Shown here: positions 1 to 44,724 of the stretch, piece by piece
Layout of the letters: each line of letters starts with the position of its first letter
Position numbering within the stretch: position 1 is the stretch's first letter
Assembly: GCF_024521635.1 (NCBI RefSeq)
Contig: NW_026250404.1
Location: 2,232,001 to 2,296,000 of the forward strand
DNA: 64,000 bases
Direction of reading: 5' to 3'
Source of the DNA: Tricharina praecox
Lineage: Eukaryota
Position numbers and translations under genes: made by a program
Notes under the pieces: generated by a model
The model's input: only the letters and a program-made list of their open reading frames with translations
Told to the model about the DNA's origin: nothing
Database searches by the model: none

Positions 1-953
1 GGACATAGATAACATTGTTGGCTTTCGTCACAGAATTGCACTCGGTGTGTTTACCTGCACTTTCGTTGCGATGGGGCACTCGGCTGTTGAGTGTGCCATA
101 GCCTGGATTGGTCGTACGTAAGGTATTTGTGAAGGGTCGGGTGTATGTAGCTGTAGGATGCGTACCGAAAAATTACTCAGTGATTATCAATGTCTCGGTT
201 GTTGTTTAACGTTACAAAGCACGGGATCAATAGATTTACCCATGGTGAATTGCAATTTCAATCTGCCAGACCATGGGCGAGTATATAAAACCTCACATAT
301 GGGGATAGAGATAAATTCTTCCGCCGACAGCCTTCTATATTGGCCAGGTGCTGTCGCAATGTACTCTAGAAAGGTAATATTGGGAGGCGGCAATACTGTC
401 CAGTACATAGTACCTAGCGTGGATTGGTTCCGAGCATTAGCTATGACTACTTAAGTACAGTAGCAAAAAGTGGGGTGCGATTACTACCTGAAAAATACCA
501 GGGTTATCGCAATACCAAAGAACTATCAGATTTTTACTTAACCCGTATTTTTTCTCTTCAAAAAGAACCAGACGGCACGTATTTTCACATAGAAAAAAGG
601 GCTGCCATCTTTCCCACACCACGTATCAAAAAAATACGTCTGCTACAGACAACGAGAGTTATACAGCGTTGCAGTACATTTGCAGTATACCACGTAGTTA
701 TAAACCCTGCATAGTTGTAGAACCATATGGTAAACAAAATTGCGTGTTGGGTTACTTCCGATGGTACTACGTGATGTTCACCAGATGTCTGCGATATATC
801 TACCAAAAGACTTCCGTGCTTGCAAAAGCCGGTGCTCACCACTACCCTTAGGGCCCGTACAATGCGATCTTCTGGAGTATCATAGGGTTGGGTATCTGCA
901 GCAGAACAACGGATTTGCAGACGGCTCCATTGCAGAGTGATGGGAGACAGGAT

Positions 954-16293: not shown

Positions 16294-18300
16294 ATGTCCT
16301 CCATACCTCTCGCGCCGTACCCATCCAGCGCTCTACGCGCCTCGATCCCACCGCCCGAATGGTCCGCAATCGTCAGCAGCTGGAGCGCGGCACTCTCCGT
16401 GCTCCTCCAGCTCCCAGCCAGCAAGTTTGCCGTTGCCGGCAGCTCCGAAAACACCACCAATTTCCTGCTCAGTTACCTCGCCGGCTCGGGCCTCGCCACG
16501 GACGCGCCGCAGATATCGCTGCGCAAGAATGTCTTCCTGACTATCCACCGCGTGCTGTCGGAGCACCCGAAGACGGCGCTGTTGACCACCCCCGGCTTCC
16601 TGACGGCTTTCGCCCGCGTGTACGCCCGTGTCGCGGAGGCGCAGCGGCTGCTCGACGAGCTGTGGAAGAGCCGTGAGGTGGAGATGGAGGCGGCGGTTAA
16701 GGCGCTGAAGACTACACACTTGCCGGTGTTTCAGAAGGCGGCGATCAGCTATGATGATGCGGCGGAGCTGGGAAAGCTCTTTCAAGCGTCGCCGAAGGTT
16801 GCGGCGACATTTCTTGCGGGTGATGAGTTTGTCGAGGTTGCTATGGATGGCGGTGAGGCCACAGTGAAGCTGTTTGCTAAGGCTTGGTGTGAGGCCGCGA
16901 GAGTCAATTGGAGCGTCGTTATTGATGGGATATATTCGCTCACTTCGCCAAGCGGTGGCAGCAAGGAGAAGGCGCTCCTGGAGAAGCTGATGGGATTGGG
17001 GGTAGGGGCTAAGCTCGAGCAGCTAGCAGTAGGAACGGACTATGAAGGCCGGGTTGCCGGTGCAGTGGAGAAGCTACAGCCATTCGGGAGGGCCCCAGTG
17101 AAGAGGAAGAAGAGGGACACGAAAGGTAAGGGCAAGGCGGCAGTAACTCCCCATAGCCATGAGGAGGCGGAAATTGCGAGCAAGGTAGATACCATTCGAG
17201 ATCTACTCCCAGACTTTGGCACTGGCTTCCTGCGGAAGTGCTTGAAGGCAATGGACGGAGATACGGAAGCTGTCACCATGGCCCTATTGGATGGAAACTT
17301 GCCGGCGGGGTTGGACGGCGTTGACCGGAACGAGGAATAGTATGTTCATCGATCTTCCCTCAATAGTGATCGCAGGCTAACACCAAGCAGCATCCCCAGT
17401 GAGACACAGTTCGCACGCCCCTCGGTCACTCCAGCCACCCACACTCGATCGACCACACCCCAGCCCCAACGCAAGAACATCTACGACAACGACGAATTTG
17501 ACCGTCTTAAATCCTCCACCGTCTCAAAACTCACCACCGGCCGCCGCAACAACAACACCACTGCCGACGCTCTCATCGCCAAGGGTGCGAGTGAATACAA
17601 ATCCAATATCTTGTCCGCTCTCAGCGCTTTTGATGCAGACGATGACGAGCGCGACGATACATACGATTCTGCCGATATTGGTGGCGCAGTGGATAGAGAT
17701 GCCGAAGAGATCAACACTCGGGACGAGGTAGAAAAGGAAGGCTTCTCCCGCGAGGCGAGTGGAAAGACCGGCGAGATCAACACTCGGGACGACGTGGATA
17801 TGGAAATGTGGATGGTCTACAAACGCTCTCCGGAAGTCTTCTCCCGTGAGGCGAGAGGCGGAAATGCAAGGAAGGCTCTGAAGGAGAGCACGGCGAAGAC
17901 CGACGAGGACCTGGAAGGCTGGGCGAGCATGTTGCACCGCGAACCAGATAGACAGCGCAGGCTCGAGAAGCGCTTTGTGGATCAGGAAATGGCCACGGGC
18001 CGACAGCAGGTGCAACTGGAACGGACGAGGTGGACCGCAGGAGATACGGAGACGGAACGGGGCAGAGGAAGGGGTCGGGGCCGGGGTCGGGGCCGGGGCA
18101 GGGGCGGTATGGACAGGGCTGGAGGTGCCCCGGGCACAAGTGGAACCGGAGGTGAGGGTGGCCAACAGGGTCCACCTGGTGGTGAGGGCAGAGGAAGGGC
18201 GAAGAAGGAGCATAATAAGGGAAGAGTGGGCAACCATAATAGGCGGGAGGGACACGCCAAAAAGATGGCCAGGGGCTTTGGCGGAGCTCCTCCTGCTTAG
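16294..18300 (+). CDS. CUE3: CUE-domain protein, Cue3/Rqt3/ASCC2 orthologue (ribosome quality control trigger complex)
   Basis: CUE-like IRDLLPDFGTGFLRKCLKAMDGDTEAVTMALLDGNLP. RKNIYDNDEFD and DDDERDDTYD motifs, RG repeats, C-terminal KGRVGNHNRREGHAKKMARG. Intron ~17340-17390. An alternative in-frame ATG lies at 16207. Confidence 0.85.
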
Positions 18301-18660
18301 ATGTGGTTGTGCGGGAGCATCTGGGGATTATATCGGATACAGCCATGTCGTGTAATAGCACCGGTCACGCCAATAATGTCAGATGGGCATGTCCATCACT
18401 AGCGGTCAGTGATGTGAGGCCTGTACGGCCACTATTTGCCCGTGAACTGTGTAAATATTTGCCAGACAAGTAACACTCCATGATGCCTTCTATGATACGG
18501 CTAAGGGTACTAGGTATCCCAAAATTAAAGTACAATACATCTCAAAGGACCAAAGAACCAAAGAACCAACCCCCACGCAACGCCAAAAGAATCTAAGTAT
18601 CCAAACCCTTCCAATACGATGACATCTAACAAGAGACGGTTAGTCTTGCTTCATATAGAC
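18277..18660. repeat. Left copy of a ~385-bp diverged inverted duplication (partner 22227-22614)
   Basis: e.g. TAGCACCGGTCACGCCAATAATGTCAGATGGGC here versus the reverse complement of GCCCATCTGACATGATTGGCGTGACCGGTGCTA at ~22504-22536. Confidence 0.95.
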
Positions 18661-19791
18661 CGATCCTCGCGGTCATCACGACTCTCGCTGTAAGAGCTTG
18701 TGAGGGTCCCGTGCACGCTCATCGAGGGGCATAGGCAGTGGTGGCACCATCTTCTGCCGGAGCGATTACTCCAACTGTTTAGGCGGATATATCATATACT
18801 CCGGGCCATACAGGAGATCATGTATCTATCAGTGGGATCTGACGTAGGTACGTGGGCTGGAAGCTCTCCAGAGTTACGGATATCACGGATTCACGGGAAT
18901 GACGAGTCTCGAACCGAGTGAGTTACATGATGTCAGATCGAAGAAGATCTACCGTATTGGCTGACACCTAATGTTCTCTTATTTTTCCAGTCTCTCCGGT
19001 CCGGTCCGGAGGTCCTCTATATACAGAATTTGGAATGGTGATAGAGGTGGTTATACACAATCCCATCATTGCTGCCAACCCCATAACCGCGACATAAAGC
19101 ATAAAGAAAAAACAAAGTACGTTAATCCGTCTCACATAACCCTTCAACACATAAAACCCCCAGATTAGCACATCCCAGCCCACTTGATCGGATCACCAAC
19201 GACACAACCTCCTCCTATGTACCTCACTACCCCCGAGAGAAAGTCGTTGGAAAGTCGTTGGAAACTCGAAGGAAAAGCGATAATAATGTGGGTGGATTGT
19301 AGAGAGGGAATGTCGAAGGTGGAACCTGAGCCGGCGCACTATATAAGGATCCAGCGGGCACTTAACTACCTAGCAGATGATGCACATGTGGACTATATAT
19401 TATCAGTCGTCAGTTACTACTCTATTGATCGGGACCATTGAGGGAAGGAGGGAAGGAGCGAGGAAAGGTAACCAACAGTTTTCATTTTCGTAGTTGACGG
19501 GAGTGTTGAATTCCTCGTGGGCAGCAGTGGAGGCGATCTTGATGGATGATTGCTGCATATTGACTGAGGCACCTAGGTAGGTAGGATAGCGAGGAAAGTG
19601 TTGTATGTATGTGGTTTGTATTGGTCTTGAAGGCGGATTGCTGGTTGGCTGGATGGGGATCTGGAAACCGGGAGGATACGCTCGTCCTTTATACACAACA
19701 TTCCTCTATCCAGAGTCCAGACGCATCTTCAAGTGAAGTTTCCATCGTGATTCATGGTGTTTGGGATAATCGTGGTTTCTGGGCTTGGCCA

Positions 19792-20083
19792 ACAGCTGCT
19801 CCGCCAAAGTAAATCTGGTACTTTGGGTCATCTTGCTGCGTTCTGGCTGGCTTGGACTGCGGCGGGCTTGGACTGTAGCGGGCTTGGACTGTAGCGGGCT
19901 TGCGATTATTGTCAATTGATGGTACCTACCGTTAACTTCCAAGTACCACCAGCCGCTCCGCCAAAGGAAATCCTGTACTTTGGGCCATATGACTGCGTTC
20001 TGGCGAGCTTGGACTGTGGCGAGCTTGGACTGTGGCGAGCTTGAACTGTGGTGGACTTGCGATTCTTGTCACTTGGTGGTTAC
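19792..20083. repeat. Diverged tandem duplication (~158-bp period) with internal 15-bp repeats (GCTTGGACTGTRGCG)
   Basis: CAGCTGCTCCGCCAAAGTAAATC at ~19792 versus CAGCCGCTCCGCCAAAGGAAATC at ~19950. Confidence 0.85.
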
Positions 20084-21168: not shown

Positions 21169-22247
21169 ATGCCGATCCAGCCCCGACGGTATGTTCCTCT
21201 TCCGAACGTCTCGGTATCACCAGCTAATCCGTCGCCAGTCGTGCGCCAACCACATACTCCCGCAAAACCACTCCGTACTCACACACTCCGAGTAAACGCC
21301 GCCGGCTTGCCTCGCCCTCTGAAGAGCCGTCCTCGGAGCCGCCGGAGTCCACGCCGCCTCCCACCGCCGCAGCCGCACATCCCGCACCTCCCCACCCCTT
21401 CGTAATAACCAGCAAGCCGACCAGCACGCAAGCCTCGCGCGCGACCAGCACCCGGCGGCGCCGCCCCGCCGCTGCCGCCCCGCCCAAAAAACTAACCCAG
21501 CTCACCCTCGACCTCGGACAGCGGCTCCGCCACACCTGCGCGCTCTGCAAGATGTCGTACCACCCGTCGTCGCCGGACGACGTGCGTGTGCACACGCGGT
21601 TCCACCGCGCGTCGCTCGCGGGCGTGGAAGCGCCAGCATCGCTGTTCTCGCGCGTGATCTGGCGGGGCGCGGCGCCGGCGGCGACGGGGGATGACTCTGT
21701 CGCGGTGGTCACGGGCGAGTCGGCGCCGGCGGAAAAGAGGAAGGTCCGTGAGATGCTGCAGATCGTGGATTCGGAGCTTGGCGCTGCGGAGATCACAGAT
21801 GACGCGCTGTGGCGCGCTGGCAGATGGAAGGCATACCTCTTTTCCTCGTCGCGTAGGGTCGTCGGGTTTCTCCTCGCGGAGAGGATCCAGCGCGGCTATG
21901 TGGCGCGCGGAGGCGCGTCCGGCGCTGTGGTCATGGGGGAGGAGAGGCCGGCGCTGCTGGGCGTATGTAGGATTTGGACTGCGGGGGAGTGGAGGAGGCG
22001 GGGCGTCGCGAGGAGGTTGCTCGAGGAGGCAAGGCAGGAGTTTGTCTATGGTTTGAAGGTGGGCCGGGAGTTGGTTGCGTTTAGCCAGCCCACTGAGAGT
22101 GGTGCGGCGTTGGCGAGGGGGTGGTGGGGGGAGTTGAGGGAGGTCCATGGGAATAAGGAGAACGGAAAGGAGAAGGCAGAGACAGACGAGACAGAGGATA
22201 AGGGAGAGAGGGGGGAGGGCTGGTTAGTCTATGTGGAGCAGGACTGA
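21169..22247 (+). CDS. ECO1: Sister-chromatid cohesion N-acetyltransferase Eco1/ESCO, two exons
   Basis: ATG 21169, intron 21189-21238. PIP-like QLTLDLG, C2H2 finger TCALCKMSYHPSSPDDVRVHTRFH, GVCRIWTAGEWRRRGVARRLL, AFSQPTESG. Confidence 0.95.
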
Positions 22248-22614
22248 CTGTCTCTTGTTGGATGTCATCGGTTTTTTGGGTTTGGAAACTTAGATTCTTT
22301 TGGCGTTGCGTAGGGGGTTGACTTTTTGGGTTTTTGGTCCTTTGGTCCTTTTGGATGTACTTTACTTTTGGGGATACCCAGTACCCTTGGTCGTATCATA
22401 GAAGGCATCATGGAATGTTACTAGTCTGGCGAATACCTACACAGTTCACGGGTAAACAGTAGCCGTATCAGGCCTCACATCACTGACCGCTGGCGATTGA
22501 AACGCCCATCTGACATGATTGGCGTGACCGGTGCTAACTATTACAATTTACACAACATATGGCTGCATCCAATATCACTCCACAACCACATCTCAGCAGT
22601 AGGAGATCCACAAA
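22227..22614. repeat. Right copy of the inverted duplication (partner 18277-18660)
   Basis: Reverse-complement alignment by eye along the full length, with small indels. Confidence 0.95.
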
Positions 22615-36553: not shown

Positions 36554-39178
36554 ATGCCGACCCCCGCCCCCCTCCGCAGCGCCTTCGACACCCTCAGCCC
36601 ACCAATCCCGCTCGTCGGCCGCTCCTCCTCCGCATCACCATTCTCACCCAGCACCTCGACCAACTCCTCGACCTCGCACAACCCCAACAAAAACCTCTGC
36701 TCCATGCAGCCACCTCCTCGACCTCCTGGTCCCCCCGCCCCACGCTTCAAACCAAACGCCGCATTCGACAAGCTCCTGCACACCTCGCCCGTTCCGCGCA
36801 CGATCACGGCTGCTTACGAGTCTTCGCGTCCCCAGGCAAAGAAACCCGTCGGTGGGTATAGTGTGCTCTCCGGATTCGGTGCTGGGTCTACGACGACTGC
36901 GCTGCCGAGGCCGGTTCCGATACTACAGAGACATGTGCTGCTGCCGCCGAAGGTAGAGGAGAAGGGACGGGAGATGGTGAGGAAGACGTTTGTTGGCGAG
37001 CCGGCGGCTGCTCAATTGGAGAGGGAGACGGAGGAAGGAGAAGCTAGAGCTACTGCAAAACGTGCTCGTGAGGAAGAACCCATCACCGCTGCGCCCGAGA
37101 TGAAGAAGGTCGTGACAGAGAAGCTACCATCCGCTAAGAAGAGAAAGTCGCTTCTTGGGCAAGCAATGGAGCAGCATGAGAAATTGTCGTTGCCCGAGTC
37201 GTCGTCAATGGATATCGACGTGCCTCTGTCAGCAGATGCAGGTGTGCATGCGCAAATGGAGGACGTCGACGCGGCTCAACAGGAAATCCAATCAGCTCCG
37301 CCGCCAGAGAAGCGGAGAAAGACGAATGCCAACACAGCGCCGGCGGAGACTCCGAAAATCACTTCAAGAGCACCCTACCTGTCAAGAGCTACAGGATCGA
37401 GCACCACGAGAACCCCATCTGCGAGATCTGCGAGACCGACCCAAGCTACGGAAGAGACTCCTGCTACCAGGTCCGCGAAGCAAGCATCAACTACATACGA
37501 CACTCCAACGATGGGGACTGCACTGCCCGAAACACGATCATCTTCTCGACTCAAGTCGAGCTCAAGGTCCTCCCCGGTTACCACAATGAAATCTCCAGCT
37601 TCAAACTCGAAGATCCCAACGTCCACCTCGAAGACCTCCACTCAGAAGAAGCCTCCACCACCGGAGCCCGCTACATCTTCCCGGAAGAGAAACCGGGGTG
37701 AAGAGACCCTCGATGAAACAGATATCTACAACTTTGTCGATGTCGAACCCGTGTCTCCTCCGCAAAAGAAGTCGCTTCCAGTTCCCGTCACGTCCCCACG
37801 TACCACTAGGAAGACGAGGGGTGCGCCAGAGATTCCGGAAACTCCTGCCATTGCTCCCATCGCTTCTGCCGTGAAGAGCTCGACGGCCCAGAAGAAGACT
37901 CCGGCCGAGCCACGTTTGACGAAGAGTGTCAACCATGACACTCCAGTTCCTACTGCTACTAAAATCAAAGCTGCAACTTCGCGGAAGACATTGCTACCAC
38001 CGGGTAGCCCATCGTCGCTTCGTAAAGCCGGTAGGGCGGTCATCGAGACATCGGAGGCTTCGGAGGTTGAAGAGACGCCAAATTTGAAGAAGACCAGCTC
38101 CTATTCTCGTCGAATAAAGAACAAAACGGTCGAGGAGGATGAAATGCATCCAGATATCCTGGAGCCAGTAGTTTCCAAGACTCCGACTCCCAAGAAATCA
38201 CTTCCACGACGCACCAATTCGTCTCGCCGCACAGCCGTGGACAAGAACCAAGAGATACCTGAGACCCCGGGATCTCCTGGGCTGCCAGCTACCAAAACTG
38301 CAGCCACGAGGAGGTCTCCGCCACTGCCGACCACTACCTCGCCCCGGCGTAGAAAGCTCAAAGCCGTCGCCGTCGTGGGAGGGGATGAGGTGCAAGGGAC
38401 ACCCCAAAGAATAGCATCACCGGAACTACTACCTCCTCCCTCCACGATGACACCTGCTGCCAGGAAAGCGATATTACAGCGCACCACCTCCACTCGGCGT
38501 AAAGTCACCAAGGTCGAAGTTGACGCTGCCACCCCGGCCACCAGCAAACCAGCACGTCAAACCCGCTCTTCCGGCGGCAAGAAAACTGCTGTCGCTGTTG
38601 CTGAAGATGAAATCCCAGAAACTCCGGCAGCCAACACCACCACCCCCACCACCTCCAAGATCCCCACCTCCCGCTCCAGCAAGAAGACTACCGCCACCAG
38701 CAGTACGAAGCCAACAGTCGTCATCCAAAGCCCCATCCCCGCGACTGCAACTTCAACTACAACTCCCGCCGCAGGCCGTCCCCGCCGCAGCCTGGTCCTC
38801 TCGCCGCTTTCGCATCCTCCGCCGGCCGAAACCCCCCCACCCCCACCCCCACCCCCAAAAGAGAAGTCGACTAAATCTCGTATCCCGCGCAGGTCGACGG
38901 GTAGTTGGGAGGGTAAGGACGGGCTGTACAATATTCCGAGCGAGATATTGGCGTCGCATGGAAGCGTGTGGGACGGCAAGAGTGGGCGCAGGGTCAGCGG
39001 TCGGACTAACGCCATTGCCCCAAACATTGCGCCGAATGTCGTGGAGGAGCCGGTGAAGAGTGTGCAGAAGAAGACGGGGGAGAAGATGGAGACCAAGAAG
39101 GAGACCAAGACGGAGACTAAGGCGAAGGCGAAGACTAAGAAGGTGGTTAGTTATGAGTTTTCGGATGAGGAGGAGTAA
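36554..39178 (+). CDS. Hypothetical 874-aa intrinsically disordered S/T/P/K-rich protein with repeated (E)IPETP motifs
   Basis: Uninterrupted 2.6-kb ORF with many S/T-P sites and basic NLS-like clusters, ending KKVVSYEFSDEEE. Confidence 0.75.
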   Translation: MPTPAPLRSAFDTLSPPIPLVGRSSSASPFSPSTSTNSSTSHNPNKNLCSMQPPPRPPGPPAPRFKPNAAFDKLLHTSPVPRTITAAYESSRPQAKKPVGGYSVLSGFGAGSTTTALPRPVPILQRHVLLPPKVEEKGREMVRKTFVGEPAAAQLERETEEGEARATAKRAREEEPITAAPEMKKVVTEKLPSAKKRKSLLGQAMEQHEKLSLPESSSMDIDVPLSADAGVHAQMEDVDAAQQEIQSAPPPEKRRKTNANTAPAETPKITSRAPYLSRATGSSTTRTPSARSARPTQATEETPATRSAKQASTTYDTPTMGTALPETRSSSRLKSSSRSSPVTTMKSPASNSKIPTSTSKTSTQKKPPPPEPATSSRKRNRGEETLDETDIYNFVDVEPVSPPQKKSLPVPVTSPRTTRKTRGAPEIPETPAIAPIASAVKSSTAQKKTPAEPRLTKSVNHDTPVPTATKIKAATSRKTLLPPGSPSSLRKAGRAVIETSEASEVEETPNLKKTSSYSRRIKNKTVEEDEMHPDILEPVVSKTPTPKKSLPRRTNSSRRTAVDKNQEIPETPGSPGLPATKTAATRRSPPLPTTTSPRRRKLKAVAVVGGDEVQGTPQRIASPELLPPPSTMTPAARKAILQRTTSTRRKVTKVEVDAATPATSKPARQTRSSGGKKTAVAVAEDEIPETPAANTTTPTTSKIPTSRSSKKTTATSSTKPTVVIQSPIPATATSTTTPAAGRPRRSLVLSPLSHPPPAETPPPPPPPPKEKSTKSRIPRRSTGSWEGKDGLYNIPSEILASHGSVWDGKSGRRVSGRTNAIAPNIAPNVVEEPVKSVQKKTGEKMETKKETKTETKAKAKTKKVVSYEFSDEEE

Positions 39179-39303
39179 TGTGCGATTACTCTGCGGGATA
39201 GTGTGTGAGAGACACACAGAAAGAGAGAGCGCGCGCGCTGATTTCTGCTTGCATTTTGTCGATGATCAGGACAGGATGGGGTTTACCTTTCCATCCCACT
39301 TTA

Positions 39304-39429
39304 CTTTTCTTTTCTTTTCTTTTCTTTTCTTTTCTTTTCTTTTCTTTTCTTTTCTTTTCTTTTCTTTTCTTTTCTTTTCTTTTCTTTTCTTTTCTTTTCT
39401 TTTCTTTTCTTTTCTTTTCTTTTCTTTTC
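39304..39429. repeat. (TTTTC)n microsatellite, ~25 units
   Basis: Seen directly. Confidence 0.98.
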
Positions 39430-39464
39430 ACTTGAGCACTTTACTTTCTGCGTTTCTTCTGCGT

Positions 39465-39531
39465 TTACTTGTCTTTTACTTGTCTTTTACTTGTCTTTTA
39501 CTTGTCTTTTACTTGTCTTTTACTTGTCTTT
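39465..39531. repeat. 11-bp tandem repeat (CTTGTCTTTTA) x~6
   Basis: Seen directly. Confidence 0.9.
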
Positions 39532-40073
39532 TCTCTAATTGCTTGGGTTCGATACGCAGCCATGCAAGCAAGCGGGATTCGGTTCGGGAGTACCTTTAGT
39601 ACAGTACAGTGCGATTCGTTTGAGACTCGGGAGAACTACTGGGAGACTGGGCGCACAAATGTTGTTATTTAGCGGGCTGCTTTACTTACGAGAATTTACA
39701 CTGGTGGATGCAGAAGTATCTTAAGCCTTGAGGTGTTCCGTACTTGGTGACTGTGACATCGGCAATCGTACGGTATGCTGTGGCGGGCGGGCAGTAAGGT
39801 ACCGGCTTTTGGTTCATCATACCATAGGTGTAGGTATCAGGCTTGGTGATGGAGTTGAAAACTCATACGATGATGAATTTAGTTACGTGCACAATGGCAT
39901 CGACACCACCACCGCTGTGCGTCACTTTACTGGACGAAGAAGAAAAAAATGTTGTGATGGAATTGTTGCTTGCTCGTCACTCGATACATGAATGATATGC
40001 TATGAACACAGAACCTGAGCGACCTTACGATGAAAGTGATAGTAATAGTACGGTGAAACCAAGCCCCTTCTAC

Positions 40074-40081
40074 TATATAAA
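40074..40081 (+). promoter_or_regulatory. TATA-like box (TATATAAA) ~200 bp upstream of the hairpin array
   Basis: TATATAAA at 40074-40081 with no convincing downstream protein ORF. Confidence 0.4.
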
Positions 40082-40273
40082 CGTCGGCAGTGATCCTCGT
40101 TCTCGTCCTCGTGATTGAAATCGATACTGTCTCGTGCGCGGTGTTCTTTGTTTCGGCATTGCTCCCCTACAACCACCAAACACCCTCGATATTTTCCTGC
40201 ACTTAGTACGGCAAGCTCGACGTCCTGCCGTTAGCTGTTGGTGCTGAGGAACCAGACCCACCACTAACTACCA

Positions 40274-41471
40274 CTCTGTGAGGGTCGAGTGATATCTACT
40301 ATAAGCAGCGGTTGTGAGCGAACAGCCGGGGATGGGGGTAAATCGACGGGGTGGCCGTTACTTACATTCAGATCACTCGTCGCTCATAGGGTACCGCGGA
40401 GACCACAATTTCAAGTTCAGAGTACCTAACGGCTCATCCAGACATGAGCATCATCCACAGAGACGATAGGTACGCAGCCTCGTACATACATCCATCCAAG
40501 ACCCCCTTCTACTCAGTACAATCGCCGGGGTGATTAAGACCCCCTCTGCGAGGGACAAGTGACATCTACATAGAGTAAAACTCGACTGTGAGCTTGAGCA
40601 GAGTGCGAATTGGGCTGTAATGGCGTTACCTACAGATCACTCGTCGCGCATTCCGCAGAGACCGCAGGTTGAAACTCAAACTTCAAACTCCAAGTCTCCA
40701 AGCCAGGGCTGTCTTTGTACTATACATTTGAGAATATACAAAGAAACCACGCAGTCTCGAGATCGATCCCACCACACAACTATACTGTGGCTCCCCCAGC
40801 ACGCTGCTCCCAACTCCGGCGTTTCTTGATGCTCGTTATCGCCGAGGAGCCCGGAGCCAGTCCAGTCCACCACTCCTCCTCTGCGAGGGACAAGTGACGT
40901 CTAGAGTAAAACTCGACTGTAAGCTTGAGCGGAGGTGCGAATTGGGCGAGAAGGGCGTTACCTACAGATCACTCGTCGCACATTCCGCAGAGACCGCAAG
41001 TTCAAACTTTAAACTTTCAGTCTCCCAACCAGGGCCTCGTTAACTATCGCCGAGGAGCCTGGAGCCAGACGAGTCCAGTCCACAACTCCTCCTCTGCGAG
41101 GGACAAGTCTGGGTTTCGGGGGGGAAACTTCAGACTCGTCGCTCGTTCCGCAGAGACCGCAACTGCCACTGTAGACTCCCCTATATACGAAGTCCGCAGC
41201 TCCAGAAACTGTCTGTCTGCGAGCGAGGGAGGGACAAGGACACGGTAGGTCACTCGTCGCTCGTTCCGCAGAGATTGTTTCTGCGATCACCACAAAAAAT
41301 TTGAGAACTGCAACGGAATACCTGGTTAAAGGTATGGTAAGGTCAAGAGCTGCCATGGCAAGCACTGATCAAATGCAGAAATAAAAAACCCATCAGAACT
41401 GTTGAGCCCAGTCTGACGCACTCTGCAAGGGACAGGTGACACGAGAATCACCCGTCGCTCGTGCTGCAGAG
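40274..41471 (+). ncRNA. Array of six homologous stem-loops; candidate polycistronic microRNA-like / structured RNA
   Basis: Units 40274-40401, 40544-40660, 40879-40992, 41092-41155, 41215-41273 and 41421-41471. 5' arm ~CTCTGCGAGGGACAAGTGA pairs with 3' arm ~TCACTCGTCGCTCGTTCCGCAGAG, with compensatory changes between units. The repeat is certain; RNA status and strand are inferred. Confidence 0.55.
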
Positions 41472-42375
41472 ACCGCAATCTTTTCTCTATTTTCTCGAGG
41501 ATTATTTTCTCCCCCAAAAAAAAATCAAAAAAGACTCCGGTCGGTTAAAATCGAGCAAAAAAACTGCAAGTACTGGAGTAAAACGCCGAAAACGCCGAAA
41601 AGAACTCCAAACAGTGCAAGATCACCAACGCTATGTCATATTTCATTCGTAAAATAAAATAATAAACCCGCCCGAATCGCAATCCCAAGACCCCAAGAAG
41701 CAACGTCTTCATCTACCGTACTCTAGCGACTGATCGCCGCAGTAGGCACGTCAGAAGGTCAAGTCCGACCACCAACACCAACAGCACGGTAATCTCAATC
41801 GCAATCGCAATCGATAAACGAAGCGCGCGTTCACGCCGCACCATCACCGAATCAGCAAAGCATGAGCACGCGTAATCTATGTACCTGTCTGTCTTCACGC
41901 GACGCGTCGAGAAAACCCCAATGGGCATGTGTGCCGTGGTATAAAGGGCGCCTTTTTAGTAATTTATCCGATACCGACAGTATAGCGAGCGGTAGACAAA
42001 ATAATAAAGAAAAACTCCCTCAAATTCGAACCCAGCAATCCGTTATAGTACAATGAAGGAAGAACGACGTTGACCCCGTGAACAAAAAAAAAACAAAAAA
42101 AAGAGCAGGAAACCGTGAAGAAACCGGAAAAGGAACAAAAACCGCAAAAAGGTAAAGGTAAAAGAAAGGTTTTAGTTCGTTGGACACGCACACAAAAATC
42201 ATGAATGAATGCACAGCAAAACAGAAACCTCCATCCAAGACCCGAAAACATTAAAACTTTGCAGCCCAACACAACCTACTTCGTTCATTTCCCAAATCAA
42301 TACGCGATCAAACGCGTATAGAAATGTGAGAACAAAAGGCGAAAGTGCCGTACATCAGAGCGGAAAGTTGATCGT

Positions 42376-43057
<682 letters not shown>

Positions 43058-44081
43058 TTTGGTGGTGAGGATTGGGGATTGAAAGTGGGTGGTTTGCGGA
43101 GGTATTGAGGTTGGATGTGGTTGTGGTGGTGGTTGATGTGGTGGAGTGGATGGCAGAAGTTTGTGGTAGTGGAGGTGGGAGAGAAAGGGCGACGTGGGAG
43201 ACCAGTCCCTCTTATAGTGTCAACGGGCTCGGAGTCGCATCACGCAGCGCGATTGTGCGTGCTGGGAAGTGCGCAGCGTACTAGGGAGTACGCCAGCCAA
43301 GCGTCGCGGGTTTGCTGGTAGGGTTTTCTTTCGGAATTTACGTGCATTTGCCGTATTGGGGTGGTGCGGCTGGGATTCGGGGGAGGGGGCTGATAAAACA
43401 TCCGGGGTGGGTTAGCTGGGGCTGGTCGCAACGCGTTGTTGTTGTTCTCTGCTCTTCCATCCCTACAACCTCCCTCTAACTGCTCTAGCAGCCGCCATTC
43501 CCAGCCTCTTGTTGTACGCTGCTACTCCAAGTACGAACCCGCTACTCTGCTCGACGCTACACGGATCCACCGTTCCTCGCAGCAGCAAGACCTGTCGTGA
43601 TGTTGGCCATCTGTCCCTTACGCGTCGCCGCTGGGAGACCAGAGGAGTCGGGCGTGCGGCGTGCTGTCTGCTGCGTGCTGCGTATTCGCTCTGAGCCGAC
43701 GACGACGCGTGATTGCAGATGGCCAGACTGGTGGCAGCGCCTTCCTCTCGGATTCTCTGCCACTAATGGGCCTGCTAGCTGCTGCTCGGCTAGTCGTGAA
43801 AATCAAAGTGTTTTCTGTTCAACACCAGTAACCCCTAACCCTGGCTGCTGCCCCCAACGCCCTGAAAAGAAGCCAAGCCTGTTGATGCGAAGTCGCGTTC
43901 GTTACCATCGCTCGTATAAAGACCAAGCTGCTCCCACCACCCGACGCTGTTCTACCTTCTCCTCCTCTTCATCTACCAACAACCCGTCCAAACCACCACC
44001 ACCACTCTCAACCACCACAAACTCGACCCTCGCACCCCCTCACCTCTCCCACTTTTTCAACCCCCCAAACCAAATCAAACA
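43058..44081. promoter_or_regulatory. Bidirectional H2B/H2A promoter with MCB-like and AACCCT elements
   Basis: ACGCGT at 43431, 43620 and 43705; AGGGTT at 43320; CCTAACCCT at 43834-43842; TATA-like sequence near 43212 and 43915. Confidence 0.6.
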
Positions 44082-44724
44082 ATGTCTTCCGGAGGAAAGG
44101 GTGGAAAGGCTGCCAGCGGAAAGCCGTCGCAGAGGTTAGTTTGCAACTTGATTCCCCTCGTCTGTCGGTCGCGATCGAGATCCATCACCCACATCCATCA
44201 AACAATCGACTCGAATCCTGTTTTCGACTTTTGAATTTCGACTTCTTTGGTCGCATGTTTTCGGATCGCATGTTTTTGTGTTTGAAAATCTGTTTCTGAC
44301 TCTTTTCGATAGCCGTTCGTCCAAGGCCGGTCTCGCGTTCCCCGTCGGACGTGTCCACCGTCTGTTGAGAAAGGGCAACTACGCTCAGCGTGTCGGTGCC
44401 GGTGCGCCCGTCTACCTCGCCGCCGTCCTCGAGTACCTCGCCGCCGAGATCCTCGAGTTGGCTGGTAACGCCGCCCGTGACAACAAGAAGACCCGTATCA
44501 TTCCCCGTCACTTGCAGCTCGCCATCCGTAAGTTTTTCCGAATCGCATTTCACATCCAGGTTCACCGGATTCTGACTTCAATACCAGGCAACGATGAGGA
44601 ACTGAACAAGCTTCTCGGTCACGTCACCATCGCCCAGGGCGGTGTCCTGCCCAACATTCACCAGAACCTTCTGCCCAAGAAGTCTGGCAAGGCCGGAAAG
44701 GCCGGTGCTTCCCAAGAGTTGTAA
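44082..44724 (+). CDS. HTA1: Histone H2A (C-terminal SQEL, gamma-H2A type), three exons
   Basis: [10 protein letters not shown]..., [34 protein letters not shown]..., ASQEL*. Confidence 0.98.

Follow-up and report, generated by a model that had tools for sequence, protein, structure and literature searches.

A tandem family of six imperfect hairpins in a non-coding gap of the Tricharina praecox genome: candidate small-RNA precursors or a palindromic DNA repeat

Tandemly duplicated polycistronic microRNA clusters are known from animals and plants, the miR-17~92 and MIR395 arrays being examples, and protein-binding hairpins repeated in one long non-coding RNA are known from the stem-loop repeats of the Drosophila roX RNA. 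Neurospora milR-2, on the other hand, is a short-stem hairpin that is processed by Argonaute instead of Dicer. The subject of the present analysis is a stretch of 64,000 nucleotides of the Tricharina praecox genome (contig NW_026250404.1, positions 2,232,001 to 2,296,000; 'the window' in the following, with positions counted from its first letter), in which six inverted-repeat units lie head to tail on the plus strand at 40274-41477, thus within 1204 nt. As judged from their sequence, these units are a real, unusual and locus-specific family of imperfect hairpins with modest internal evidence for selection on pairing.

With regard to fungi, the accessible part of a 2022 re-analysis of 1727 reported hairpin loci (Johnson et al., PMC9757828) indicates that microRNA-like RNA (milRNA) loci are scarce, usually solitary and weakly conserved, and that many of the published ones do not survive basic tests. 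In the same partial text, cross-species conservation is given for 25 loci, and basic standards are satisfied by fewer than half; a milRNA hairpin is required to have a duplex free of secondary stems with no more than 20 unpaired bases, while confirmation requires abundance, strandedness and replication in small-RNA sequencing (sRNA-seq) (PMC9757828). The available portions of this work and of a 2024 review deal with single loci rather than tandem families (PMC9757828; PMC11413187), and the words 'tandem' and 'cluster' are absent from the main text of the former as far as it is accessible. Within the partly available literature on fungal milRNAs no description of a tandem hairpin small-RNA cluster was found, nor was the 3' arm sequence of the units encountered in the literature text searched. 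A Dicer-independent, Argonaute-mediated route for short-stem hairpins of the miR-451 type has been described in what is available of two further articles (PMC3616727; PMC5737282). A family of six hairpins with evidence from within the locus for selection on pairing would be exceptionally well suited to studies on how hairpin RNAs of fungi originate and are processed.

The units of the array range from 57 to 134 bp in size and consist of a 5' arm (19 nt, consensus approximately CTCTGCGAGGGACAAGTGA) and a 3' arm (24 nt, consensus approximately TCACTCGTCGCTCGTTCCGCAGAG), with the tail ACCRCA directly 3' of five of the six. Arms within a unit are complementary at 17 of 19 positions plus a 5-nt indel, which qualifies them as terminal inverted repeats (TIRs), and form a stem in which about 17 pairs are spread over 19/24 nt. 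Its lower part, CUCUGCG/CGCAGAG, comprises seven pairs and is followed by a bulge on the 3' side in all six units (5 nt, but 10 nt in unit 1) with a sequence that varies at four of six positions, by two pairs and a G-G mismatch, equally present in six of six, by the middle stem GAC/GUC, by an A-C mismatch in five of six units (unit 1 has G-C there) and by the upper stem AGUGA/UCACU. From unit 1 to unit 6 the loops measure 80, 74, 71, 21, 8 and 8 nt, and as they vary freely not only in length but also in sequence, the stem is the conserved object. The six homologous units, the recurrent mismatches and bulge and the shrinkage of the loop from 70-80 nt to about 10 nt or less had been noted in the initial annotation of the stretch, and reading as well as pattern search found positions and arms where they had been claimed.

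Searched with at most three mismatches, the patterns of the 3' arm and of the 5' arm each gave five matches in the window, all on the plus strand and in the array, versus 0.00 and 0.02 expected, respectively; the 3' arm of unit 1 and the 5' arm of unit 5 fall outside the cut-offs because each has an insertion. A covariance model built from units 4-6, which was run unfiltered on both strands of the window with a threshold of E≤10, returned 17 matches, namely five units (E 7e-21 to 3.3e-11, with 3.3e-11 for unit 2, 4.5e-18 for unit 4, 3.4e-15 for unit 5 and 7e-21 for unit 6), unit 1 as a weak match (13 bits, E 0.22), three matches that are images of units on the opposite strand, and eight matches of at most 11 bits without relation to the array. 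A weak model match at 884-928 (minus strand) is a trivial small hairpin unrelated to the array. Self-comparison of the window revealed no copy of a unit outside 39900-41800 and none in the other 62.8 kb. In a metagenome scan with a degenerate 3' arm pattern, 113 loci had one match each, which are considered chance hits because none of these loci resembles 39600-42000 by blastn. The soil-metagenome DNA runs X1 and X2 contain the locus almost unchanged; among the differences listed for X2, those inside the array span (40725, 40945, 41016, 41017 and 41029) are all outside the arms and too few to interpret. Directly 3' of unit 5, at 41276-41293, TTCTGCGATCACCACAA reads like a collapsed seventh unit, in which the start of the 5' arm is followed by TCAC and then by the ACCACA tail; the covariance model gave no match there.

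By their sequence, the units are paralogues that originated from local segmental duplication. Units 2 and 3 are identical at 19 of 19 positions of the 5' arm and 29 of 30 positions of the 3' arm plus tail (together 48 of 49), with 63 matches in 75 columns (84%) of the loop and 64% identity in the downstream flank. The sharing of flanks is mosaic, as the downstream flank is common to units 2 and 3 and the upstream flank to units 3 and 4 (family D2; 42 matches over 55 alignment columns). Shared neighbour flanks together with co-oriented adjacent copies indicate segmental duplication rather than transposition, so that the growth by local duplication, which had been deduced from the flank before units 3 and 4 and from the ACCRCA tail, is borne out. 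Target-site duplications, already reported as not visible, did not emerge when the flanks of all six units were compared: the left flanks of units 1 to 6 (CCA, CCC, CTC, CTC, CTG and GCA) never recur on the right, where ACC is found in five units and ATT in unit 5.

Conservation of the arms exceeds that of their surroundings. No alignment is possible between the flanks of units 1 and 6 and those of the other units (about 45% identity, in unit 6 the same level as between other unalignable flank pairs), while the arms are still recognisable; units 4 and 6, for example, share 16 of 19 and 20 of 24 positions of their arms despite unalignable flanks (about 45%). As the arms are recognisable where the flanks are unalignable, either purifying selection acts on them or conversion keeps them alike.

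Changes within the arms preserve pairing in several instances. In unit 6, four of the five arm substitutions make up two compensated pairs (pair 7-18' from GC to AU, pair 15-5' from AU to GC). By our own calculation for this unit, 22 of 2024 random placements of three changes in a 24-nt arm strike both partner positions, and the chance of a double compensation that provides the right bases as well is approximately 0.1-0.4%. Unit 4 has its two top pairs swapped (GC>CG, AU>UA) next to a new palindrome, GUUUC/GAAAC, and as they adjoin this palindromic insert the two swaps may be a single event. The changes in units 4 and 6 thus are as the initial annotation had stated them. Unit 1 possesses two U-G pairs on the plus strand that would be A-C mismatches on the minus strand, while the 8-nt insert in the 5' arm of unit 5 is able to pair with the 3' bulge in the centroid fold. 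The covariation that had been proposed for testing was evaluated on an alignment of units 2-6 fitted to the model, with unit 1 excluded for a score below that of a reverse-strand match. Pairing occurs in 92.9% of 85 cells versus 27-49% with partners slid, and three pairs are changed on both sides, a count reached in 6 of 500 shuffles; both the 92.9% and the 6/500 figures are generous, as the alignment was fitted to the structure and its rows are paralogues. 

With the helix as the conserved object, pairing restored after change and loops left free, the pattern fits the recognition of a double-stranded stem, and hairpins in a plus-strand non-coding RNA that serve as substrates of RNA interference (RNAi) are favoured because of this fit. 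Whether the units act as RNA hairpins at all nevertheless appears evenly balanced, and their role as small-RNA precursors can be proposed only tentatively.

The main rival, which is ranked nearly equal and is just as tentative, is a palindromic repeat at the DNA level without RNA function, that is a foldback unit or a unit resembling a miniature inverted-repeat transposable element (MITE), amplified locally by replication slippage or unequal crossing-over, with arms that are kept alike by gene conversion and complementary changes that arise from quasi-palindrome template switching. Conserved inverted ends around a deleted middle (80 to 8 nt) are the usual pattern of a non-autonomous TIR element and the mosaic sharing of flanks fits unequal exchange; the 3' arms of units 4 and 5 are identical over 23 nt despite differing 5' arms, the swapped pairs of unit 4 are located beside a new perfect palindrome as expected from template switching, the insert of unit 5 resembles two 4-nt slippage duplications, and units 2 and 3 are not hairpins in prediction. 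Such a repeat is less easily reconciled with the lack of target-site duplications and with the presence of all six copies on one strand within 1.2 kb; the dispersed copies expected of a MITE are not found outside the array in the 64 kb. Moreover, template switching should erase mismatches, whereas the G-G mismatch (6/6), the A-C mismatch (5/6) and the bulge (6/6) persist, even in the compensated unit 6, and the two G-U-type changes of unit 1 are sensible only at the RNA level, although unit 1 may be decaying. Should the array be only a palindromic DNA repeat, it would demonstrate that 'covariation' among paralogues within one locus can mimic RNA structure.

The predicted folding separates the short from the long units. 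Each unit was folded alone on both strands, with z-scores calculated against shuffles and pair probabilities determined with 30-nt flanks. On both strands, units 4-6 exceed their shuffles in stability (z -2.6 to -3.7), and unit 1 has z = -2.9 on the plus and -1.25 on the minus strand. Over both strands, the mean arm-arm pair probability amounts to 0.82-1.00 in unit 4, 0.29-0.84 in unit 5 and 0.86-1.00 in unit 6. A consensus fold of units 1-3 restores the stem between the arms on both strands and adds a conserved inner stem, GUGAGC/GCGUUAC. With respect to the milRNA shape rules cited above, units 4, 5 and 6 pass with 9 unpaired bases, unit 1 folds accordingly on the plus strand only, and the arm-arm stem of units 2 and 3 has a probability of 0.00-0.38. 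According to these models, three of the hairpins are secure, whereas those of the three long units depend on the model used.

The favoured RNAi-substrate reading envisages a lineage-specific family of imperfect hairpins within a non-coding transcription unit that is not annotated so far, where local segmental duplications would have enlarged the family. RNA polymerase II (Pol II) would start downstream of TATATAAA at 40073 on the plus strand and end at the AATAAA at 41380 or at 41653/41661, giving rise to an RNA of approximately 1.3-1.6 kb. Each unit would fold locally into a stem of about 17 pairs, built of a lower part, the bulge, a middle part flanked by mismatches and an upper part beneath a loop of 8-80 nt, and the stem, not the loop, would be recognised by a double-strand-specific factor (Dicer/RNase III or Argonaute) which would cut small RNAs of about 19-24 nt out of the arms. 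The transcription of the array, its strand, the processing and a possible target are all deduced from sequence features, and a plus-strand Pol II non-coding transcript with hairpins that would be recognised as double-stranded and would probably be a source of small RNAs accordingly is put forward as one possible scenario. More speculative still, and rather improbable, is that the array represents the first tandemly duplicated polycistronic hairpin small-RNA cluster in a fungus, specific to Pezizales and perhaps processed by Argonaute rather than by Dicer; if true, the array would yield a set of related small RNAs and would evolve through duplication, the loss of loops and compensatory changes in the stem.

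The location of the array is compatible with a separate transcription unit. It resides in a non-coding gap of 3.2 kb between two convergent stop codons, about 1 kb from either of them, and as 3.2 kb is long for a gap between two 3' ends, there is room for an unannotated gene. The TATA-like motif that had been placed about 200 bp upstream of the array was found. Between 39200 and 42500, TATAAA occurs on the plus strand at 40076 and 41940 and TTTATA nowhere; a further plus-strand AATAAA is present at 42003, and the sole AATAAA of the minus strand overlaps the stop codon of the histone H2B gene. The plus strand is favoured, since within the array span TATAAA and AATAAA are on the plus strand only and three independent G-U pairs, two in unit 1 and one in unit 4, are specific for it. 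The inner spacers are G-poor on this strand (G 0.19, C 0.31). With respect to RNA, the metatranscriptome run X4 contained nothing on the array, while run X3, which is RNA by guess, provided one 298-nt contig at 41033-41330 (unit 4 plus unit 5) with 0 differences; the remainder of the array and H2B are uncovered in X3, save a 65-nt low-complexity contig at 42111-42150. As RNA and low-coverage DNA are indistinguishable for the X3 contig, no conclusion is drawn from it.

A considerable number of observations weigh against hairpin small-RNA precursors. The folds of units 2 and 3 are no better than shuffles (z -0.3 to -1.2), their minimum-energy folds on the plus strand pair the 3' arm with a segment of the loop and not with the 5' arm, and the mean arm-arm pair probability is 0.00-0.38 in unit 2 and 0.00 in unit 3 on both strands; the folding of all units on both strands recommended in the initial annotation hence supported units 4-6 on both strands and unit 1 on the plus strand, but not units 2 and 3. 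In the minimum-energy fold of the whole array, arms pair across units and only unit 6 forms its own stem, on either strand, a fold that is, however, uninformative for co-transcriptional folding. On the sequences at hand, independent covariation reduces to two pairs in one unit, unit 6, and all comparisons are between paralogues of one locus and open to homogenisation by gene conversion. Single pair-breaking changes are present in unit 1 (A12U) and in units 2 and 3 (position 12'), four more at the stem ends of unit 5, and the putative seed positions vary between units. With about 17 pairs and a 5-nt asymmetric bulge, the stem is short compared with a Dicer duplex, and irregular as well, and it has no basal extension. 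The numbers of TATA and poly(A) hexamers are not far from those expected by chance in the A-rich gap, where about two AATAAA are predicted by our estimate from base composition. On the minus strand, the A-C mismatch of five units turns into G-U; for this reason, the strand is not settled, as had been recognised before. Finally, no RNA run is on record as containing the stretch. The microRNA-like interpretation of the initial annotation thus holds in so far as the array is non-coding, its arms are conserved beyond loops and flanks and some changes are compensatory, but the label itself, an unproven hypothesis, derives from shape, and neither the seeds, the dimensions of the stem nor the prediction for units 2 and 3 speak for it.

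An alternative that would retain RNA structure is a structured non-coding RNA or a read-through region of a neighbouring gene in which the hairpins act without RNAi, either as a multivalent platform for a stem-binding protein or as RNase III-type cleavage/termination sites that separate convergent genes. This alternative, considered unlikely, draws on the same structural evidence; mismatches and bulge are kept in every unit or in almost every one, as in irregular helices recognised by proteins, the variable seed-like positions fit structure and not target pairing as the selected trait, and the array is situated midway between convergent genes. The variability of the bulge sequence and the unconserved loops, however, leave no obvious sequence-specific contact site apart from the helix, the AGNN tetraloop of the Rnt1p type is missing, and the distance of about 1 kb from either stop codon does not match the usual fungal 3' untranslated regions, which are far shorter.

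The 3' arm end CCGCA-GAGA-CCGCA could also constitute two direct half-sites similar to those to which zinc-cluster factors, AlcR for instance, bind, making the array a cis-regulatory DNA element. With CCGCAGAGACCGCA intact in units 2, 3 and 4, both half-sites are found in three of six units only, as unit 6 has CTGCA, unit 5 lacks the second and unit 1 reads CCGCG and CCACA. As the half-site change in unit 6 is matched in the other arm, it points to pairing and not to protein-DNA contact, and as the gap is located between two 3' ends, there is no known gene to regulate, which makes a cis-regulatory role highly improbable.

Coding capacity and membership in known classes were also considered. 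The arms occur in all three reading frames, and the array contains no open reading frame (ORF) of at least 80 amino acids that starts with ATG; the ORFs at 40925-41248 (plus) and 41009-41365 (minus) were dismissed as genes, having neither an ATG start nor a Pfam match. No Rfam match was obtained, neither at E≤10 in 38000-44000 nor at gathering score in the window, and no tRNA was found in the gap that harbours the array; a match to a known Rfam family and dispersed copies, two of the outcomes that the initial annotation had named as counter-evidence, both failed to appear, the latter within the 64 kb. Box C/D small nucleolar RNAs (snoRNAs) carry box C (RUGAUGA) and box D by a terminal stem, and H/ACA snoRNAs a pocket with an ACA box; a snoRNA cluster was rejected because RTGATGA is absent from both strands of 40000-42500, the internal loop is one-sided and there is no Rfam match. 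Telomerase RNA, considered on account of the long gene-free gap, was discarded as neither CCCTAA nor TTAGGG occurs in 39200-42500. Yeast substrates of the Rnt1p type have a stem capped by an AGNN tetraloop, which is not found here, where loops of 8-80 nt are not conserved. Introns in the loops of units 1-3, which start with GT and end with CAG, were not supported, as the start reads GTGAYR without G at +5, compared with GTACGT and ACTAAT in the H2B intron, and units transcribed by RNA polymerase III were rejected since T-runs are not consistently 3' of the units.

The coordinates of the units, of candidate transcription signals and of the neighbouring features are compiled in Table 1.

Table 1. 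Features of the hairpin array and its surroundings (positions in the 64-kb window).
Feature	Position	Strand	Description
Unit 1	40274-40407	+	long unit, the most diverged; 80-nt loop; 3' bulge enlarged by a 5-nt insert; tail ACCACA
Unit 2	40544-40666	+	long unit; 74-nt loop; tail ACCGCA
Unit 3	40879-40998	+	long unit; 71-nt loop; recent duplicate of unit 2
Unit 4	41092-41161	+	short unit; 21-nt loop; new inner palindrome GUUUC/GAAAC; two top-of-stem pairs swapped
Unit 5	41215-41273	+	short unit; 8-nt loop; 5' arm with 8-nt insert; tail replaced by ATTGTT
Unit 6	41421-41477	+	short unit; 8-nt loop; two compensatory pair changes; flanks unalignable
TATATAAA, candidate TATA box	40073-40080	+	about 195 nt upstream of unit 1; putative promoter role
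AATAAA hexamers, candidate poly(A) signals	41380-41666	+	at 41380 (inside array), 41653 and 41661; putative role
Left neighbour, 874-aa ORF	36554-39178	+	no Pfam domain; end 1.1 kb before unit 1
Right neighbour, histone H2B	42376-43057	-	Pfam Histone; stop codon 42376-42378
Histone H2A	~44150-44724	+	divergent from H2B, beyond it
Microsatellites	39299-39534		(CTTTT)n, about 45 copies, then six copies of an 11-nt repeat; between 874-aa gene and array

Among the neighbours, the 874-aa ORF has just one close relative (57% identity), and the best match among named relatives is a hypothetical protein from Sphaerosporella brunnea with 39% identity over 28% of the query. The final exon of H2B consists of the last ten codons, then the stop; the intron preceding it, within 42379-42530 on the minus strand, reads GTACGT ... 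ACTAAT ... ATAG, and contigs of other organisms continue uninterrupted at 42529 instead. A protein of the window with a VID27 domain has its best named relatives in Pezizales, with 81-82% identity in Sphaerosporella, Geopyxis and Trichophaea and 80% in Pyronema.

Further repeats were observed elsewhere in the window. Inverted repeats of approximately 330 nt at 18278-18608 and 22278-22614, 84-95% complementary in several blocks, flank about 3.7 kb with an ORF for an ESCO/Eco1-type acetyltransferase at 21228-22247; no transposase match was found among six ORFs tested in between. The arrangement suggests an inverted segmental duplication enclosing a host gene, not a transposon. The same interval contains a 135-nt direct duplication (family D7; 19789-19923 and 19946-20080, 84% identical). 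A tandem array at 947-1110 has a period of about 22 nt (TGGGAATGACTCTAG..ACCGAG) in four to seven copies (families D8 and D13), and 37-nt inverted repeats at 452-488 and 2503-2539, 86% complementary and 2 kb apart, enclose a long (AGT)n microsatellite at 1906-2093.

In comparison with the described systems, the array resembles miR-17~92 and MIR395 in its paralogous hairpins on one strand within about 1.2 kb, with conserved arms, free loops, local duplication and some compensatory changes, and differs from them in its stem, which has only about 17 pairs and an asymmetric bulge of 5 nt, in differing seeds, in a fungal host and in being known from sequence alone. MITEs and foldback elements share with the units the imperfect terminal inverted repeats, the variable and often deleted interior and a size of 57-134 bp, but not the lack of a target-site duplication and of dispersed copies in 64 kb, the co-oriented and adjacent copies and the shared flanks. 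Like roX, the array presents several copies of a conserved stem with variable spacers in one presumed non-coding RNA, without sequence or taxonomic relation and without a known binding protein. As far as the available text on fungal milRNAs permits comparison, the array agrees with them in that it consists of intergenic hairpins of animal-like size outside coding sequence with no Rfam match, units 4-6 of which conform to the shape rules, whereas fungal milRNAs are single loci defined by sRNA-seq and the array is a tandem family (PMC9757828). To hairpins of the miR-451 type, as characterised in the accessible excerpts, and to milR-2 it is similar in a stem of less than about 19 pairs, too short for canonical Dicer measuring, and in the small loop of units 5 and 6; with loops of 71-80 nt in units 1-3, this likeness to the miR-451 type is an analogy of shape only.

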